64,000 bases of DNA from Candidatus Yanofskybacteria bacterium RIFCSPLOWO2_02_FULL_41_13 (lineage in GTDB: Bacteria > Patescibacteriota > Minisyncoccia > 2-02-FULL-40-12 > GWA2-44-9). The stretch spans positions 14,808-78,807 of the forward strand of contig MGKQ01000001.1 in the NCBI GenBank assembly GCA_001795735.1. The letters run 5' to 3'. A program made the position numbers and the translations under genes. The first letter of the stretch is position 1, and every line of letters begins with the position of its first letter. The notes beneath the pieces are model-generated. The model was not told where the DNA came from and searched no databases. It was given only the letters and a program-made list of their open reading frames with translations. This document shows, piece after piece, positions 993-64,000 of the stretch.

Positions 993-1113
993 TATCAATA
1001 TGCAAATGAATTATGCCAATATGCAAATGTAATGCGAATGCCGCGAATATGCAAATACTACATTAATGTAATTCGCAATTCGTAGATTCGCATTAGATTC
1101 GTAGATTTGCATC
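992..1113. promoter_or_regulatory. iteron-like direct repeats (3x AATATGCAAAT[G/A]) plus an inverted ATTTGCAT and TTCGTAGATTCGCAT direct repeats upstream of the 1114 gene
   Basis: Repeats read directly from the sequence at 998-1009, 1018-1029 and 1047-1058. ATTTGCAT at 1105-1112 abuts the ATG. Confidence 0.45.
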
Positions 1114-17771: not shown

Positions 17772-17851
17772 ATCCCGTTAGAGGTCCGACTTGCCTAGAA
17801 GGCATGGTCAGCAGATGCACCACCAAGGGCGCATCTTACCTCTAACGGGAT
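17772..17851. mobile_element. divergent member of the CCCGTTAGA terminal-inverted-repeat element family (MITE-like or structured small RNA)
   Basis: 14-bp perfect IRs ATCCCGTTAGAGGT / ACCTCTAACGGGAT enclosing 52 nt with internal hairpins. TIR sequence is related to the elements at 51486 and 61162. Confidence 0.5.
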
Positions 17852-24788: not shown

Positions 24789-24817
24789 TTGACACTTTTT
24801 GACACCTTTTGATACTA
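24789..24817 (+). promoter_or_regulatory. promoter-like motif TTGACACTTTTTGACACCTTTTGATACT upstream of the pseB-like operon
   Basis: Near-identical to the motif at 2781-2808. Confidence 0.5.
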
Positions 24818-24843: not shown

Positions 24844-25830
24844 ATGCTCGATAATAAGACAATTCTGATAACCGGGGGGACGGGTTCATTCGGCAAAAAT
24901 TTTGCCAAATTTTTACTCAAAAGTAGCGGGCTCAAAAAGCTCATTATTTTCAGCCGAGATGAGTTCAAGCAATACGAGATGCAGAAAGAAATAAGCGATC
25001 CGCGTATACGTTTTTTTATCGGTGATGTTCGGGATTTGCCACGTCTTCAGCGTGCCTTCCATGGTGTTGATATCGTTATCCATGCCGCCGCGCTTAAACA
25101 AGTTCCTACGCTGGAGTACAATCCCTTTGAAGCAGTAAAGACGAATATAATCGGGTCGCAGAATGTAATTGATGCTTCAATTGACCAGAGTGTTTCAAAA
25201 ACACTGCTCATTTCAAGCGACAAGGCTGTTCAGCCAATCAACCTTTATGGGGCGACTAAATTGGCCGCCGAAAAGCTTTTTGTGGCCGCAAACTCTTATA
25301 CATCGCTCACAAAACGTAGTATCTTCAGTGCGGTACGCTATGGTAATGTAATGGGAAGCCGAGGCAGTATCGTTGAGGCGCTTCTTAAAAAACCTGCCGC
25401 AGAAAAGGTATTTATAACCCATCCGGACATGACTCGTTTTTGGCTTACCCTGTCAGAGAGCTTCCACCTTGTTTTATTTGCTATTAAGCATATGGGTGGC
25501 GGAGAAATAATCGTGCCTAAAATTCCCAGCATGAAGATAACCGAACTTTTTGATGCCCTTGCTCCGCGGGCTAAAAAAGTAATCACCGGCATACGACCGG
25601 GAGAAAAAATTCATGAAACGCTTTTAACTGAGCATGAGGCGCGCAATACCATATTAGTAGGGAATCATTTCGTTATTCTTCCTGAATTTACTTCAAAACC
25701 AAAATTTTTCGAACATTACTATACGCTGGGAAGCAAGCTTGATAACCATACTCCCTTCGCCAGTGATAACAACACAGTATGGCTAACCAAAAAAGAACTA
25801 AAATCAAAAATAAAACCGACGCTACTCTAA
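24844..25830 (+). CDS. pseB: UDP-N-acetylglucosamine 4,6-dehydratase (PseB/FlaA1-like short CapD family)
   Basis: KTILITGGTGSFGKNF and overall PseB/FlaA1-type extended SDR of about 330 aa. Confidence 0.75.
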   Translation: MLDNKTILITGGTGSFGKNFAKFLLKSSGLKKLIIFSRDEFKQYEMQKEISDPRIRFFIGDVRDLPRLQRAFHGVDIVIHAAALKQVPTLEYNPFEAVKTNIIGSQNVIDASIDQSVSKTLLISSDKAVQPINLYGATKLAAEKLFVAANSYTSLTKRSIFSAVRYGNVMGSRGSIVEALLKKPAAEKVFITHPDMTRFWLTLSESFHLVLFAIKHMGGGEIIVPKIPSMKITELFDALAPRAKKVITGIRPGEKIHETLLTEHEARNTILVGNHFVILPEFTSKPKFFEHYYTLGSKLDNHTPFASDNNTVWLTKKELKSKIKPTLL

Positions 25831-46871: not shown

Positions 46872-47183
46872 TCAACTTCCAGAGCCAAACGCTTTGGTGC
46901 GTCTGTACTCTTTAAGCCTTAGACTTAAAAATATCCTACCCCTTGTCGTTTTAAGATAACCTTCTCTGCGTTTGGCATCTTGCTCATTAGTACAGCCTTC
47001 AAAATATATTAGCTTGAATGGTAACCTGAACTTTGTACTGAAATTGAAGCCTTTATTATGTTCATCTATTCTTCTGCGCAGGTTATTTGTGTAACCAATG
47101 TATAACCTATCGTCCTTGATACTTTGTAGCACATAGATATAGAAGAACATGCTGGAAGCTGTATTACTGGGCATGTGATTCAT
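46872..47183 (-). CDS. GIY-YIG domain small protein
   Basis: FFYIYVLQS...LYIGYTNNLRRRIDEHNKG. Confidence 0.75.
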   Translation of the reverse strand: MNHMPSNTASSMFFYIYVLQSIKDDRLYIGYTNNLRRRIDEHNKGFNFSTKFRLPFKLIYFEGCTNEQDAKRREGYLKTTRGRIFLSLRLKEYRRTKAFGSGS

Positions 47184-48033
47184 TTAGTAAAGTTAGTTCT
47201 TCCTCCCAATTATAATTTCCCCAATTTTTATATTTTTTTCTTAGTTCATCGTTCTCATGTCCGGGATGACAACCAAGTTCTATAATTTTATCTGGATATT
47301 TTTTCAATAACTCTTTTGCTGACTTGATGTCTCTATCGCTCAAATTTCCGGCATTAACAAAACCGACGGAAAAATCGTTGCAAACAAGGCCAGCCTTTCT
47401 TACTTTTCTTTTTGCTATCGCCGACAAAAAGTTTAGAAACAACAGTTGAAGTTTTCTAAATAATTTGCCACCCAAAAAGCTAAACGGTTCATTTACGATA
47501 CGAATGTATGGAATCTGGCGTTCCTTGGCCAGCTTAACAACAATTTCTGTAATTCCCGGTAGCAGATGTAAATGCTGATGGCTATTTATGAAAGATAGTT
47601 TGATACCGGCTTGAATGCACTTATTTAACTGAGCCCTTAGTTCCGCCTCCACTTTTTTGAGACTAATTAATCCTAAAATATATTTGATGAAAAATATCCT
47701 GTGGTTTTTAGGAAAAACGGTCTGAGTAATGGGTCTCTCCTCAACCAAAACCAGATGTATCCCGTACGAAGTCTCGCTCGCGCTAAGAGCACGAGTCCTT
47801 TGGACCTCGGCGAGGCTACTTCGTACGGGATGAACCCCGATGTTTGGAAGTTCAACTTCCAAACATCGGTGGACGGCATCATCAAAAGCCGGACCATTAG
47901 CCATCAGAGAGGCACCGTCTATCTTGGCTCCTTTTAATAAAAAAATGATTCCATCGTTAATGGATTTGTTAAGACCGAGATCGTCAGCAATAATCCTCAA
48001 GTTACCAATTCCCAAGTTACGACTTACAATCAA
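47164..48033 (-). CDS. YdjC/ChbG-family carbohydrate deacetylase (NaxD/HpnK-like)
   Basis: N-terminal IIADDLGLNKSINDGI and overall YdjC-like pattern. TTG start. Confidence 0.65.
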   Translation of the reverse strand: MIVSRNLGIGNLRIIADDLGLNKSINDGIIFLLKGAKIDGASLMANGPAFDDAVHRCLEVELPNIGVHPVRSSLAEVQRTRALSASETSYGIHLVLVEERPITQTVFPKNHRIFFIKYILGLISLKKVEAELRAQLNKCIQAGIKLSFINSHQHLHLLPGITEIVVKLAKERQIPYIRIVNEPFSFLGGKLFRKLQLLFLNFLSAIAKRKVRKAGLVCNDFSVGFVNAGNLSDRDIKSAKELLKKYPDKIIELGCHPGHENDELRKKYKNWGNYNWEEELTLLNESHAQ

Positions 48034-48061
48034 TTCCAGATTTACAATGTTTCAAAAGTTT

Positions 48062-48089
48062 GAAAATTGAAAATTGAAAATTGAAAATT
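48062..48089. repeat. heptanucleotide tandem repeat (GAAAATT)x4 in the spacer between the GT2 stop and the deacetylase start
   Basis: Seen in sequence. The last unit overlaps the GT2 stop codon. Confidence 0.8.
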
Positions 48090-49083
48090 ATAAAGCATGT
48101 ACTCCATATGGCGTTTCCTTTATACTCTCACCTTCAATATTGCATGTTTCCGAGACAATATACAAAGGCCGCCCCTTAACCTCATTGAACATTTTATACA
48201 AGTACTCCCCTACTATACCGAGAACCATCAGCTGAATACTGCCCAAGAACAAAACCAATATAACTAAAGTTGCCCAACCGGCGATCAAAGGATTAGGATT
48301 AACGTAATGATCAATAACGACATAACCGGAGAAGATTATACTTACAAACAGAACAAAGAGTCCCGCCCAGAAAGCCATCCTTAAAGGAAAGGCTGAAAAA
48401 GAGGTAACTCCGCTCAATACCAGTTTGATTAATCTTTTAATATTATATTTCGGCTTGCCGGCTATTCTTGATTCAGCAACATAGGGCACATACTTCTTCT
48501 TGAAACCAATCCACTGAATCATACCCCGCAGATATCTTTCTCTTTCCGGCAGTTTTTTCAAAGCATTAACCACTCTCCTCTTGTATAAAGCGAAGTCGGA
48601 AACATTTCTAAACTCCAGATTCGTGATCATGCTCATTAGCTTGTAAAAACCCTTTCCCCCGGCCTCCCTTAATTTAGAGTTCTGCTTGTTATCTAATCTT
48701 TCGCCTATAACAATATCGGCCCCTTCTTCGGCATGCTTAATAAATGTAGGTATCAGATGAGGCGGGTGCTGAAGATCTCCATCCATAGTCAGAACCATTG
48801 AACCCCTTGAGAAGTCCAGGCCAACATTAAAGGCAGCCTGATGGCCGAAGTTCCTTGATAGCTTAATTACCTTAAACTTAGAGTCCCTGTCGGCAGTTTC
48901 TTTTATCAATTCAAAAGTTCTATCGGTTGAACCATCGTCAACAAAAATAACCTCACAGCTTTTGGCGACGCTCTTGCAAACGCCGTTTATAGCTTCTATA
49001 AGAAAGGGTATTGCCTCCTCCTCATTAAAAAGCGGGATAACTATAGATAAATAAGTGCTTTTTGACATTCCATTATAATACAA
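48088..49083 (-). CDS. GT2 polyprenyl-phosphate glycosyltransferase (ArnC/GtrB/DPM1-like)
   Basis: LSIVIPLFNEEEAI...VDDGSTDRT...DGDLQHPP and two C-terminal TM helices. Confidence 0.8.
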   Translation of the reverse strand: MYYNGMSKSTYLSIVIPLFNEEEAIPFLIEAINGVCKSVAKSCEVIFVDDGSTDRTFELIKETADRDSKFKVIKLSRNFGHQAAFNVGLDFSRGSMVLTMDGDLQHPPHLIPTFIKHAEEGADIVIGERLDNKQNSKLREAGGKGFYKLMSMITNLEFRNVSDFALYKRRVVNALKKLPERERYLRGMIQWIGFKKKYVPYVAESRIAGKPKYNIKRLIKLVLSGVTSFSAFPLRMAFWAGLFVLFVSIIFSGYVVIDHYVNPNPLIAGWATLVILVLFLGSIQLMVLGIVGEYLYKMFNEVKGRPLYIVSETCNIEGESIKETPYGVHAL

Positions 49084-51490: not shown

Positions 51491-51610
51491 CCCGCTTAGA
51501 AGTAGTGCAAGCACCCACTACCACCATATGATGCCGCACACTATTAATTATTGACTGATATTCATATCATTTAACCCGTTTAGAGTACTTCTAACGGGAT
51601 TCATTTATTC
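51486..51610. mobile_element. roughly 125-bp terminal-inverted-repeat element, copy A (MITE-like)
   Basis: Ends CATCCCGCTTAGAAGTAG ... GTACTTCTAACGGGATTCAT. Near-identical to copy B at 61162. Overlaps the last codons of gene 51591..52541 and the start of the MTase gene. Confidence 0.65.
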
Positions 51611-58226: not shown

Positions 58227-59371
58227 ACAAAAGACAATATATTCTTGACTCTGCGCTCCCAGGTATAATTCTTAACATCCTCCATGGCTTTTTTGGAAAG
58301 TTGAAAGCCCAAGTCGGGTTCACTTAATATTCTGCCTATCCCCCGGTCTAAATCGCCAGGTTTATTCGGGTTAACTAAAATTGAGTTTTGATCATTAAGG
58401 ACTTCTGCGATCGATGGTAAATTGCTCGCGACAATCGGACAGCCTGACGCCATGTATTCAAAAAGCTTAACCGGCGAAGTATTTAGATAAACCTTATCTT
58501 TAGCCGAATTAGGCAATGTCAGAACATCGGCCGCTTTTAGATAAACCGGAATTTCTTTATGCGATTTGTGACCTAAGATCAAAACGTTTTTCAACCCCCT
58601 CGCTTTTTCCCTAAATTTCTTGATATCATAGTCCATCCCCCCGACAAAAATAAATAACACAGCATCTCTTTCTTGGAAATTGGAAACTAGAAATTGGAAA
58701 TTCCTTGCTGTTTCCAACAAGGAATAAACTCCCTTCCACTCGAATAAGTGACCTGTGTACATGACTATCTTTGAATCTTGGGACAGACTTAACTTCTTTC
58801 GTGCTTCCTCCTTTGATATCTGTATATCAAATTCGTTCATATCAACACCGTCATGAGCAACTAAAACGTTATCAGCCGAAAAGCCGATATTTAAAAACTT
58901 GCCCCTGAGGCTTTCCGAAATAGTAACTACTTTTAAATTCCTGGCCAGAAATCTTCTGTAAAAAAATATTCTGGCATCAGAAAAATTATGAGCCTCAAAA
59001 ACAATTTTTTTATTGAAGAAGCTTAGAAAATATAACGGCCACTCGTCGCGGGAATAAATAATATCGGCTTTTTGGACAACGGCGTAAAAAGAAAGAAGCA
59101 GGGCAGATATAACTCCCTTAATGTTGACTGCAATTTTATCAAGCCGACCGGAAAAATAAAAATCCGGTGCCCATATTCTTTTTATCTTAAAATTTGTTCT
59201 GACGGAATAGTATGAGCAGAGCTCATCTCTGATGTGATTGTCTCTGAAAGGATACAGTAGAGTCACCTCAAGACCCTGCAATGCAAAAGTTTCGCACATC
59301 TTAGCAATTTGGACACCATATGCTTTTTCTGTCGGCAACCTTAAATTAGCAATAAATAAAAGTTCTCTCAC
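58223..59371 (-). CDS. GT4 glycosyltransferase containing an in-frame heptamer repeat tract
   Basis: GT4 C-terminal EYMASGCPIVASN. Tract TTGGAAA-TTGGAAA-CTAGAAA-TTGGAAA at 58673-58700 encodes NFQFLVSNFQ. Confidence 0.75.
   Translation of the reverse strand: MRELLFIANLRLPTEKAYGVQIAKMCETFALQGLEVTLLYPFRDNHIRDELCSYYSVRTNFKIKRIWAPDFYFSGRLDKIAVNIKGVISALLLSFYAVVQKADIIYSRDEWPLYFLSFFNKKIVFEAHNFSDARIFFYRRFLARNLKVVTISESLRGKFLNIGFSADNVLVAHDGVDMNEFDIQISKEEARKKLSLSQDSKIVMYTGHLFEWKGVYSLLETARNFQFLVSNFQERDAVLFIFVGGMDYDIKKFREKARGLKNVLILGHKSHKEIPVYLKAADVLTLPNSAKDKVYLNTSPVKLFEYMASGCPIVASNLPSIAEVLNDQNSILVNPNKPGDLDRGIGRILSEPDLGFQLSKKAMEDVKNYTWERRVKNILSFV
58673..58702. repeat. imperfect heptanucleotide tandem repeat (TTGGAAA family, 4 units) inside the GT4 coding sequence
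   Basis: Seen in sequence. Confidence 0.8.
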
Positions 59372-60932: not shown

Positions 60933-62252
60933 TTAAAACTTTAGAATTATACTTTTCTTCCACCAATTTCCTGCCGTTTGCCCCTAATTCAGTTAAAAGC
61001 TCTGGATGGTCTATTAAGTATAATATCTTTTCGGCCAGCGCTCTAAAATCGCCCTCGTTTACAAGGAATCCGTTATAGCCATCCCCCACCTGATCAGGAA
61101 GACCGCTGTGTCTTGTAGTAATGACAGGCAACCCGGTAGCTAAAGCTTGTGAAATAATTACATTCATCCCGTTAGAAGTAGTGCAAGGCACCCACTACCA
61201 CCGTACGGTGCCATACATTACTAATTATTGTTTGATTGACATTCATGTTATTTAACCCGCTTAGAGTACTTCTAACGGGATTCATATTATTCAGTATCTC
61301 CATCCTTGGCCGTTTTTGACGGCTGAACAAAGAAGCTCATATTCTGGAAAAAATCTAATATCCGTTCTATTGCCATAAATCCTTTAAACTCCACAACGTC
61401 ATTCAAGCCCAATGTTCCCGCTAAAGAATGGATTTTTTCTCTCAACGGCCCGTCTCCAATCATATAGCACCTGAATTTTTTTGAGGTCTTTTCTTTGACA
61501 ATGGCCAGAGCGCGCAAGAGGTCGTCAAAACCTTTTTTCTCCACAAATCTGCCGACCGAAACAATATTTATTTCTTTATTCTCGGATATCGCCCTCTCCT
61601 TAAAATTATAGTTATCCAAGTTTATGCCAATGGGATGAACCAGTACTTTTTCTGAAGAAAATCCGTGTCCTACTACCCTTCGCTTCATGTCCTCAGACAT
61701 AACGAAGAACAAAGCTGATTCTTCTATTAATCCCCGATAGATAGCAATCCCTTTTTCTTTTATTCTTTTACTGACATCCTGGCCGTAAAGTGAAGTGATA
61801 AATTTTTCCTTAATACCCAAAACTTTTTTTATCATGACAAAGTTAGACCCGACATTGCCAAAGTGACAATGATACAAATCGTATTTTTTACCGAAAAAAG
61901 GCTTTAAATCCCAGAACAAAACTTTAAAATTAGATGCAATTTTAAAAATAGATGCCGGCCTATAGAGTAACAGTCTGACTAACCGAGGTCCAGCCATAAT
62001 AATTCTCAGTATTTTGTTAGCCGGAACGCTAAGATACATTGTCTTTTTGTCTAACCCGTATTGAAAATACCTCTTGGATATATGGTCCTTGTTCGCCCCG
62101 CCTCGATTAAAGGCGTAAATCTCAACCCCGACCCCCCGGTCGATCAGATCACAAGCCTGATCAATAATAAAAGTTTCGGATATTTCCGGAAAACTGCCTA
62201 CAATAAAGGCGACTCTTAAGTTTTGCTTTTTATTTATATTAACTGAACTCAT
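60889..62252 (-). pseudogene. GT4 glycosyltransferase split into an N-terminal fragment (61287..62252) and a C-terminal fragment (60889..61167) by insertion of the roughly 125-bp repeat element
   Basis: N-fragment ends ...FVQPSKTAKDGDTE-stop. C-fragment resumes GMNVIISQALATGLPVITT. Together they rebuild the conserved GT4 E-G-x-G...EAMA-G-PVI core. Confidence 0.55.
61162..61292. mobile_element. roughly 125-bp terminal-inverted-repeat element, copy B (MITE-like), inserted in a GT4 gene
   Basis: Aligns end to end with copy A (TCATCCCGTTAGAAGTAGTGCAAGGCACCCACTACCACC ... TTTAACCCGCTTAGAGTACTTCTAACGGGATTCAT). Contains the 12-bp perfect palindrome CACCGTACGGTG. Confidence 0.65.
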
Positions 62253-63424: not shown

Positions 63425-64000
63425 TGTCTGATTATATTGCTTATTTTATTTATCAAATTATCAAGATTATGGTTATGGATGACATAATCCCTTAAATCTG
63501 CCGTATTCTGTTTTTTGCCGGAAATCTCAATTTTTTCGGCTAACTGAGTTGGGTCATTCTCGTTAAATATTAGCTCTTTCGGTAAAAAAGAGCGAGATGA
63601 ATCGTTTGAACTTAGGACTTTTATCCCGCAAGCCATCGCCTCAAGAAGCACCTTGTCCACGCTTCCGGTTTTTGAAAGGTGAATAAAAATGTCGTGTGAT
63701 TGGTAGTATACCGGCAAATCTTTGTGATTCACTTTTCCAACAAAATTAAATTGATCTTGTAACTTGTAACTTGTAACTTGTAACTTTATTTTTTTTTCAT
63801 ATTCTTTGTCGCTCTCCAGCGCCGCTTCTCCTGCTATAGTTACGGAAAAATCAACCCCCTTACTCTTTAGTAACCTTGCCGCATCGATCAATACTTCATA
63901 ATTCTTCACCAGTGCAATTCTCCCCACGCTCAATATCTTAAATTGGAAATTGGAAATTGGAAATTGGAAATTGGGCTTGAAAAGCCCGGTGTCTATTCCA
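63421..64000 (-). CDS. GT4 glycosyltransferase, 5' end beyond the window; contains two heptamer repeat tracts in frame
   Basis: LLEAMACGIKVLSS C-domain motif. The frame stays open upstream through (TTGGAAA)n to the window edge. Confidence 0.65.
   Translation of the reverse strand, partial: GIDTGLFKPNFQFPISNFQFKILSVGRIALVKNYEVLIDAARLLKSKGVDFSVTIAGEAALESDKEYEKKIKLQVTSYKLQDQFNFVGKVNHKDLPVYYQSHDIFIHLSKTGSVDKVLLEAMACGIKVLSSNDSSRSFLPKELIFNENDPTQLAEKIEISGKKQNTADLRDYVIHNHNLDNLINKISNIIRQ
63756..63783. repeat. heptanucleotide tandem repeat (CTTGTAA)x4 inside the GT4 coding sequence (encodes KLQVTSYKLQ)
   Basis: Seen in sequence. Confidence 0.85.
63941..63975. repeat. heptanucleotide tandem repeat (AATTGGA / TTGGAAA) x4.7 inside the same GT4 coding sequence (encodes PNFQFPISNFQF)
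   Basis: Seen in sequence. Followed by a GGGCTTGAAAAGCCC hairpin. Confidence 0.85.

Follow-up and report, generated by a model that had tools for sequence, protein, structure and literature searches.

What does a perfect run of identical heptamers do in the spacer between two genes of a glycosylation island? In the 64-kb stretch of DNA analysed here (64,000 nt, hereafter referred to as the window), such a run separates the gene for a polyprenyl-phosphate-type glycosyltransferase (GT2) from the downstream gene for a YdjC/ChbG-family deacetylase. The original prediction, made from the letters of the window, held that a change in copy number would alter the spacing or the translation-initiation context of the deacetylase gene rather than its frame, as part of a repeat-based variation mechanism acting at several points of the glycosylation pathway. 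Is the tract a switch, a selected leader, the leftover of an inserted cassette, or a by-product of slippage? The organism is a member of a Candidatus Yanofskybacteria population of the Rifle aquifer, and the exact GT2 protein is found in many Rifle assemblies and in NCBI genomes so named (30 blocks of the sequence collection).

A perfect heptamer array in the GT2-YdjC spacer

The forward strand reads GAAAATT x4 at positions 48062-48089, and TRF extends the tract to 48060-48089 as a period-7 repeat of 4.3 copies with 100% matches. On the gene strand, the spacer starts as TAA-TTTTCAA-TTTTCAA-TTTTCAA-TTTTCAA-ACTTTTGAAAC..., that is, the GT2 stop sits within the first unit, and the overlap of stop and repeat that had been proposed holds. 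When perfect tandem arrays were counted in the window (periods 2-15, three or more copies, 18 nt or longer), only three were found, all of them heptamers (at 48060, 63756 and 63940; Table 1), and 50 shuffles of the window gave none. Hence, the claimed four-unit tract is real, perfect and beyond chance, and we conclude that it is a genuine heptanucleotide microsatellite of the slippage type, a member of a lineage-wide family. Since the array is perfect, it is also young or homogenised. Its unit is related to those of its neighbours, as had been suggested, with the arrays at 58673 and 63940 carrying TTGGAAA, one base off TTGAAAA.

Table 1. Features of the GT2-YdjC junction and sister arrays, in window coordinates.
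Feature	Position	Strand	Basis
Heptanucleotide array (AATTTTC)x4.3, perfect	48060..48089	-	TRF and sequence; identical in 11 other contigs
Inverted repeat TTTCAAA-AG-TTTGAAA, 7-nt arms, 2-nt centre, overlapping the array end	48051..48066	.	
GT2 polyprenyl-phosphate-type glycosyltransferase gene, 326 aa, ATG at 49068	48088..49068	-	Pfam PF00535
GT2 TAA stop, inside the first repeat unit, part of the seed heptamer TAATTTY	48088..48090	-	
YdjC/ChbG-family deacetylase gene, intact, with a 25-aa in-frame insert	47164..48033	-	PF04794, E = 8e-46; alignment
TTG, first possible YdjC start, 289 aa	48031..48033	-	NCBI and JGI gene calls
TTG, alternative YdjC start, 278 aa	47998..48000	-	ENA gene calls; Pfam match from residue 12
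Relic ORF, 21 codons, MEYMLYNFQFSIFNFQTFETL, from the ancestral YdjC ATG through the tract	48042..48107	-	
Lineage-specific insert of ~86 nt, from the new GT2 stop (48090-48088) to the relic junction TAAC-TTG (48004-47998)	48004..48090	-	Junction alignment, distances, tree
Rest of the insert: short tandem duplications, now diverged (15 nt x2-3; 10 nt at 18-nt spacing)	47991..48048	-	
Sister array, TTTCCAA-type, 4.3 units, 82% matches, in a 382-aa GT4 gene	58673..58702	-	
Sister array (AAGTTAC)x4.4 in a 343-aa GT gene	63756..63786	-	
Sister array (CCAATTT)x5.0 in the same 343-aa GT gene as the 63756 array	63940..63974	-	

The anatomy of the junction was also borne out with respect to the operon-internal position of the tract and to a TTG start of the deacetylase gene that lacks a Shine-Dalgarno (SD) site, although the latter is ordinary here, with an SD-like 4-mer at ~15 of the 57 ORF starts in the window. 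The description of the tract as occupying almost the whole 54-nt spacer did not hold, given that it covers 30 of the 54 nt if YdjC starts at TTG 48033, and 30 of 87 nt if YdjC starts at TTG 48000. Gene calls differ between these two codons (Table 1); the N-terminus read from TTG 48033 (MIVSRN) resembles the MIEHPN/MESTHSN of homologues, and TTG 48000 is aligned with the M of MLKIIADD in homologues. The YdjC frame is closed by a TGA at 48054-48052, which rules out a longer protein, and TTG 48033 is the earliest start codon of that frame downstream of it. From the end of the array, it is 26 nt to TTG 48033 and 59 nt to TTG 48000.

No sigma-70-like promoter was found on the gene strand, either within the spacer or upstream of it, and no terminator in the spacer. 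The RNA fold of the spacer is not significant (z = -1.06), and no Rfam family matched it at gathering thresholds (the only hit being a chance-level Histone3, E = 0.17); a structured RNA or a known RNA family was rejected on these grounds. Likewise discarded were an intrinsic terminator or known cis-regulatory RNA, for which a GC-rich stem with a U-tract or an Rfam match was sought, and an hmw-type repeat of a promoter or 5'-UTR, with no promoter found and the gene pair tightly linked and co-directional in ~60 loci. The palindrome TTCAAAAGTTTGAA, said to sit next to the tract, does exist as an inverted repeat and forms a small hairpin in the (non-significant) spacer fold, but 7+7 inverted repeats of its kind are equally common in shuffles (28 in the window vs. 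11-32), and it was ruled out as a significant feature.

Other elements were noted in the region. A 75-nt hairpin element lies in frame in ydjC (window 47757-47831), beside the conserved G-x-H-L motif, and contributes 25 aa (VHPVRSSLAEVQRTRALSASETSYG), which none of 11 aligned homologues has. Its relatives are found at 17772-17851 and 61166-61281, with one arm near 51587, and have the termini ATCCCGT[TA][AC]GA[AG]GT ... ACGGGAT; the family is REP/MITE-like and reminiscent of Rickettsia palindromic elements, and a Y1_Tnp (PF01797) gene is nearby (L184 3453-4127). Also within ydjC is a perfect 33-nt palindrome (window 47837-47869, coding RCLEVELPNIG), which is kept in orthologues by compensatory substitutions (CCGATG..CATCGG, CCAATG..CATTGG, CCTATG..CATAGG); these substitutions change the amino acid, a pattern that suggests a nucleic-acid hairpin under selection. 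A small GIY-YIG nuclease gene (103 aa, window 46872-47183) overlaps the last 20 nt of ydjC; it is wedged between ydjC and the next glycosyltransferase gene and omitted by some gene callers. Further away, promoter-like direct repeats TTGACACYTT-TTGACACCTT-TTGATACT occur at 2781-2804 and 24789-24816, the latter copy just upstream of a PseB-like operon that starts at 24844, and window positions 1000-1110 hold dense ATGCAAAT/ATGCGAAT motifs and inverted ATTCGCA heptamer/octamer repeats, ending 7 nt before the ATG at 1114.

Remodelling of the junction by a lineage-specific insert

The GT2-YdjC pair is syntenic in ~60 metagenomic or genomic loci; at 48 of 60, the genes overlap or the GT2 stop is at most 20 nt away from the codon aligned with YdjC residue 1, vs. 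87 nt in the window. Three sister lineages (L097, L099 and L101) are without the insert; YdjC starts there at an ATG in CCATATGGA, and the two genes overlap because this ATG is embedded in the P-Y-G codons of GT2. One of them, L097, is among the closest relatives of the window, at 91% identity for GT2 and 69% for YdjC. Measured relative to L099, the insert of the window amounts to ~86 nt of nested short duplications and is composed of the heptamer array, a short inverted repeat and diverged 18- and 15-nt duplications, which include a second copy of the YdjC N-terminal codons (RNLGI/GNLRI). The window keeps the ancestral YdjC ATG, again within the GT2 P-Y-G codons; owing to the insert, this ATG is out of frame with YdjC, and only TTG starts are left.

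The ancestral ATG opens a relic ORF whose stop lies 8 nt before TTG 48033. In a simulation of 1-7 units, the copy number modulo 3 set the stop of the relic ORF to one of three positions, that is, 8 nt before TTG 48033, 18 nt before TTG 48033, or 1 nt before TTG 48015. The gain or loss of a unit would thus alter neither the GT2 nor the YdjC protein, and would shift the relic-ORF stop relative to the TTG starts of YdjC. An in-frame fusion of the ancestral ATG to YdjC by an added unit was rejected in the simulation, being blocked by the TGA at 48054-48052.

Arrays are found at the GT2/YdjC junction not only in the window but also in L108, L127, L098, L111 and L114/L165. In L108, TTTTAAA/TTTTCAA x4 is followed by the ATG; in L127, TAATTTC x4.6 overlaps the ATG; and in three of these loci (L108, L127 and L098) the array spans the gap from stop to start, exactly at the place of an SD site. 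The array-bearing loci are scattered in the YdjC neighbour-joining tree, each paired with a tract-less sister, and we therefore count at least five independent expansions at this junction. Tract-less junctions often bear the seed TAATTTA or TAATTTG, and across the orthologous junctions the seed is present as TAATTTA, TAATTTG or TAATTTC. Hence, whether orthologous spacers lack the repeat, a check that accompanied the original prediction, has a divided answer: the closest relatives do lack it, but similar arrays arose independently in at least five other lineages. The end of L179 (6966-6999), a contig that matches the window exactly as far as 48103 and has the L097-type tract-less junction in its last ~30 nt, was not counted as a variant of the tract, being probably a chimeric contig end at the shared CCATATGGA; a probable chimera at this shared 21-mer implies that both lineages co-occur in the same samples.

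In L108, L127 and L098, AU-rich arrays take up the space from the GT2 stop to the YdjC ATG, which favors the reading of the tract as a fixed, selected AU-rich leader (an unstructured, SD-independent ribosome standby or S1-type platform, or the site of a heptamer-binding protein) that would have replaced translational coupling once the genes were apart. Consistent with such a role, the genome is SD-poor, arrays also stand upstream of other starts (L117; window 1070-1107), several lineages have independently arrived at about four copies, the units belong to a single sequence family, and an analogous proposal has been made for the TAACTGA repeats of Beggiatoaceae, which overlap the ribosome-binding region (PMC4679880). 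In the window, however, the array ends 26 or 59 nt upstream of the TTG starts and is, for this reason, not at a ribosome-binding position; 48 of 60 orthologues do without an array; and the spacer is without a structural or motif signal. The same array family also occurs within coding regions, where a leader function is, by that very location, impossible. We consider a selected leader quite unlikely.

The junction of some relatives also raises the possibility that the tract is what remains of one arm of an IVS-like hairpin cassette (heptamer-periodic stems, sometimes with a PF05635 gene) that was inserted and then decayed. A PF05635 cassette does sit at the GT2/YdjC junction in L009 and L130, with gene-less hairpin remnants in L124 and L120, and the genome of the window has one cassette and two gene-less 125-nt hairpin modules, the arms of which are of the same unit family and align with the tract at scores of 25-32 (vs. 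16-17 +/- 2.5 when shuffled). This similarity is confined to the array, however, given that the rest of the spacer scores 14-16 against the modules vs. 14-15 +/- 2.5, and homology of the whole spacer to the modules was rejected. Further, the inverted partner array is absent, with one direct array only and a fold that is not significant; the tract is perfect, while the remaining insert is built of local duplications of the YdjC start region; and the arrays of L108 and L127 are without any trace of a cassette. A decayed cassette is, therefore, a very improbable source of the tract. As for the elements themselves, PF05635 ('23S rRNA intervening-sequence protein') cassettes flanked by inverted heptamer-periodic arrays were seen in L009 (5497-6000) and L130, and other sites of this cassette/hairpin type in L124 (7827-8000) and L120, both gene-less remnants, and in L089 (4677-5170, 6333-6457 and 8835-8959); the two gene-less modules of this genome lie upstream of GT genes.

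Invariance of the tract and natural one-unit losses in sister arrays

Sixteen contigs from around GT2 and around a GT gene downstream share 99.9-100% identity with the window, with no indels. The length heterogeneity that had been proposed as a population-level check was not seen at the tract: all 11 contigs that span it (L001-L008, L177, L181 and L182; 99.9-100% identity) carry 4.3 units, as does the window, these being consensus assemblies of one near-clonal population, which give the comparison low power. Apparent deletions in scaffolds L004 and L092 proved to be N10 scaffold gaps, not polymorphisms; the contig of a 99.2% strain (L180) ends inside the tract, and that of a 92%-identity relative (L178) stops short of it. 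Lack of heterogeneity together with conservation as a fixed spacer in distant relatives had been named as the outcome that would speak against the original prediction; the former is what we found, yet the tract is not a conserved fixed spacer.

Two sister arrays do vary. Truncated GT members were found by cluster look-ups of GT proteins, and their contigs were then aligned. At 2304-2327 of L183, the equivalent of window 63756-63786, AAGTTAC is present in 3.4 vs. 4.4 units, and the 7-nt loss splits the GT gene into 238 + 103 aa. At 10634-10656 of L184 (a 50-kb contig), AGGTACA is present in 3.3 vs. 4.3 units, and the 7-nt loss splits the GT gene into 220 + 143 aa; the full-length counterpart of this array lies just past the window end (L089 5870-5899). 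These exact 7-nt deletions are the only indels in their alignments (3.7 kb and 15.9 kb, respectively) and the only true indels among near-identical population contigs. That is, this repeat class is demonstrably unstable in this organism. By contig count, the variant alleles amount to ~1/23 and ~1/26 for the two arrays, and because the sister arrays vary in so few contigs, 0/11 variants at the tract is unremarkable; equal mutability would give this result ~64% of the time. Variation across the glycosylation pathway, as originally envisaged, is thus seen in coding arrays (63756-63786 and the L184 array, both with frameshift alleles), but none was seen at 48060-48089.

In GT4-type genes, in-frame arrays recur at two positions of the C-terminal domain. 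Among orthologues of the 382-aa GT4 gene, some contain the seed AATTTTG only once (protein NFEKKE), and the others have it extended by 21-24 nt into a 4-unit array, with AATTTTC (x4.3), AATTTCC or AGTTTCC (x4.1) as the unit. Between strains at 92% ANI (L134/L152), array lengths are equal and the units differ in concert (GAATTAC x4 vs. CAATTAC x3); no 7-nt indels were found between this pair. In the reference loci, 20 coding arrays were counted, and the ORF is intact in every case.

Heptamers as the dominant microsatellite class of the lineage

Among the arrays of 717 kb of related CPR loci, those with period 7 number 12 of 15 (perfect arrays) and 27 of 107 (TRF arrays), compared with 2 of 4 and 6 of 117, respectively, in Acidobacteria control loci, all the loci compared being glycosylation regions. 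Among microsatellites, heptamers dominate these genomes. The lengths of perfect period-7 runs fall into two groups, a chance-like tail and a separate mode at 3.7-5.1 units (26-36 nt), with none between 3.0 and 3.6 units in 708 kb of Yanofskybacteria-type loci plus the window; no second mode was found for the other periods from 5 to 10. Sense-strand units cluster around AATTTCC, with a mean medoid distance of 1.92 vs. 3.10 +/- 0.14 for random 7-mer sets. This genome has eight period-7 arrays, and every one of them falls within window 48-64 kb or the 9 kb that follow, where the island carries its glycosyltransferase genes; the 48 kb that hold the genes for NeuB, aminotransferases, radical-SAM proteins and further sugar-nucleotide functions contain none. 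The bimodal length, the one unit family and the concerted change of units are not accounted for by simple slippage.

These patterns bear on the reading closest to the original prediction, namely that the tract is a working contingency element for YdjC, where copy number modulo 3 would tune termination-reinitiation coupling, and with it the deacetylase dosage, in step with ON/OFF switching of the GT genes. In its favor, arrays of the same family in the same population have lost single units in nature, which split GT genes and are the only indels seen; the period-7 arrays are confined to the glycosyltransferase part of the island (8/8, with 0 in the sugar-nucleotide genes); the units of orthologous arrays change in concert while length is kept, which implies ongoing turnover of the arrays; in the simulation, the relic ORF terminates at three different sites, depending on copy number modulo 3; and the heptanucleotide repeats in the 5' region of H. 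influenzae hmw1A/hmw2A do tune expression (PMC8262952, PMC12721329). On the other hand, the 11 contigs and the window show no length variant, four units is short compared with characterised switches, and OFF alleles are rare, with 20/20 coding arrays in the reference loci within intact ORFs. A unit change at this junction, moreover, is without consequence at the protein level, and translation of the relic ORF with subsequent reinitiation is purely inferential. We regard a working switch at this tract as unlikely.

Origin of the tract and its wider meaning

We lean, with modest confidence, toward the hypothesis that the tract is a microsatellite which arose by slipped-strand amplification of a seed and is probably a passive spacer. 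The seed would be the heptamer TAATTTY that contains the GT2 stop codon, amplified by slipped-strand events and probably grown from one to four units after the split from the closest sampled relatives, with the stop codon kept. Together with the neighbouring 15- and 18-nt duplications, the array would have opened the ~86-nt insert between GT2 and YdjC, and a gene pair that was ancestrally overlapping, and probably translationally coupled, would now be split. The ancestral ATG now opens the 21-codon relic ORF, and YdjC must use a TTG without an SD site. On this scheme, the array at 48060-48089 may be a passive AU-rich spacer, able to gain or lose units and currently fixed at four, and would represent a class of ~30-nt, ~4-unit arrays of the AATTTCC family that occupy permissive sites of GT genes, and gene junctions, in Yanofskybacteria-type CPR genomes.

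It is important to note, however, that several observations stand against a slippage origin with a passive outcome. Slippage from random seeds does not explain why coding and non-coding arrays share a single unit family, nor does slippage explain the clustering at 4-5 units even in intergenic DNA, which is free of frame constraint. The recurrence at the same junction in at least five other lineages could reflect selection rather than a shared seed, and the arrays of L108, L127 and L098, by their location at the SD position, resemble in an analogous way the translational role proposed for TAACTGA repeats (PMC4679880). Finally, the invariance in 11 contigs is weak evidence.

The tract documents the remodelling of a junction, in which an overlapping, probably coupled gene pair was split and the start codon changed. 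More broadly, one Yanofskybacteria population has a heptanucleotide microsatellite family concentrated in glycosyltransferase genes, with at least two wild one-unit frameshift alleles, and of this family the intergenic tract alone could affect translation instead of the reading frame. CPR/Patescibacteria are thought to be host-attached, and the glycans on their surface probably help to determine how they interact with hosts and phages. A far-reaching hypothesis, which we hold to be rather doubtful at present, is that the AATTTCC-family arrays form a dedicated contingency system of Yanofskybacteria and related CPR, in which ~4-unit arrays, placed at fixed positions of GT genes, would turn these genes off and on at random through one-unit slippage and the array at 48060-48089, as the non-coding member, would retune YdjC translation, diversifying the surface glycan of the episymbiont against hosts or phages. 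No published link between CPR bacteria and phase-variable or contingency loci emerged from full-text searches of a literature library. If a dedicated system were true, the shared unit family and the discrete length would point to active, sequence-specific making or maintenance of repeats, not plain slippage; and if variability were confirmed in sequencing reads, the locus would offer a directly testable case of bet-hedging in an uncultured, ultra-small bacterium.

Comparison with known heptanucleotide repeat systems

The H. influenzae genes hmw1A and hmw2A have an (ATCTTTC)n heptanucleotide repeat in their promoter/5'-UTR region (PMC8262952, PMC12721329). The tract is alike in that its unit is 7 nt, it is non-coding and upstream of a gene in a surface glycoprotein/glycan system, and a change in length would alter expression and not protein. 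The hmw repeats differ, however, in being long and variable within hosts, in lying downstream of mapped promoters and in acting through transcription and 5'-UTR processing, whereas the tract has four units and is operon-internal, with no promoter found and no variation seen. The heptanucleotide repeat of E. coli K1 neuO, in turn, is in the coding sequence (PMC13001214) and resembles the coding sister arrays (63756 and L089 5870), not the intergenic tract: in both, the gene of a glycan-modifying enzyme holds the repeat, only some copy numbers allow in-frame translation, and a one-unit change causes a frameshift. The neuO array is at the 5' end of a phage-borne gene, as opposed to the two internal loop positions of the GT4-type genes here.

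The intergenic TAACTGA direct repeats of marine Beggiatoaceae, cyanobacteria and Bacteroidetes, for which a translational role has been proposed (PMC4679880), are similar in their 2-6 direct copies, in one dominant unit family per genome, with some repeats inside ORFs, and in standing mostly just upstream of start codons without an SD site. When the tract is compared with this type, its copy number and the missing SD site fit, and the arrays of L108, L127 and L098 abut the start as well, but the array of the window is 26 or 59 nt from the TTG codons. The unit also differs, being TAACTGA there vs. the AATTTYC family here (AATTTTC in the tract, AATTTCC as the medoid), and the arrays described here are concentrated in glycosyltransferase genes and junctions, with frameshifting length polymorphism documented for sister arrays.

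Finally, the cyanobacterial STRR heptanucleotides and the excess of heptameric repeats in bacteria are attributed to polymerase slippage in the passages of PMC4692102 that deal with them, which cite Mrazek et al. 2007 and work on Calothrix. As portrayed in those passages, they share with our arrays a lineage-specific excess of 7-nt repeats, slippage as the proposed origin and the lack of an established function. Set against that account, the arrays reported here differ in belonging to CPR bacteria, in having other units and a discrete length of ~4 units, and in occupying conserved positions of glycosyltransferase genes.
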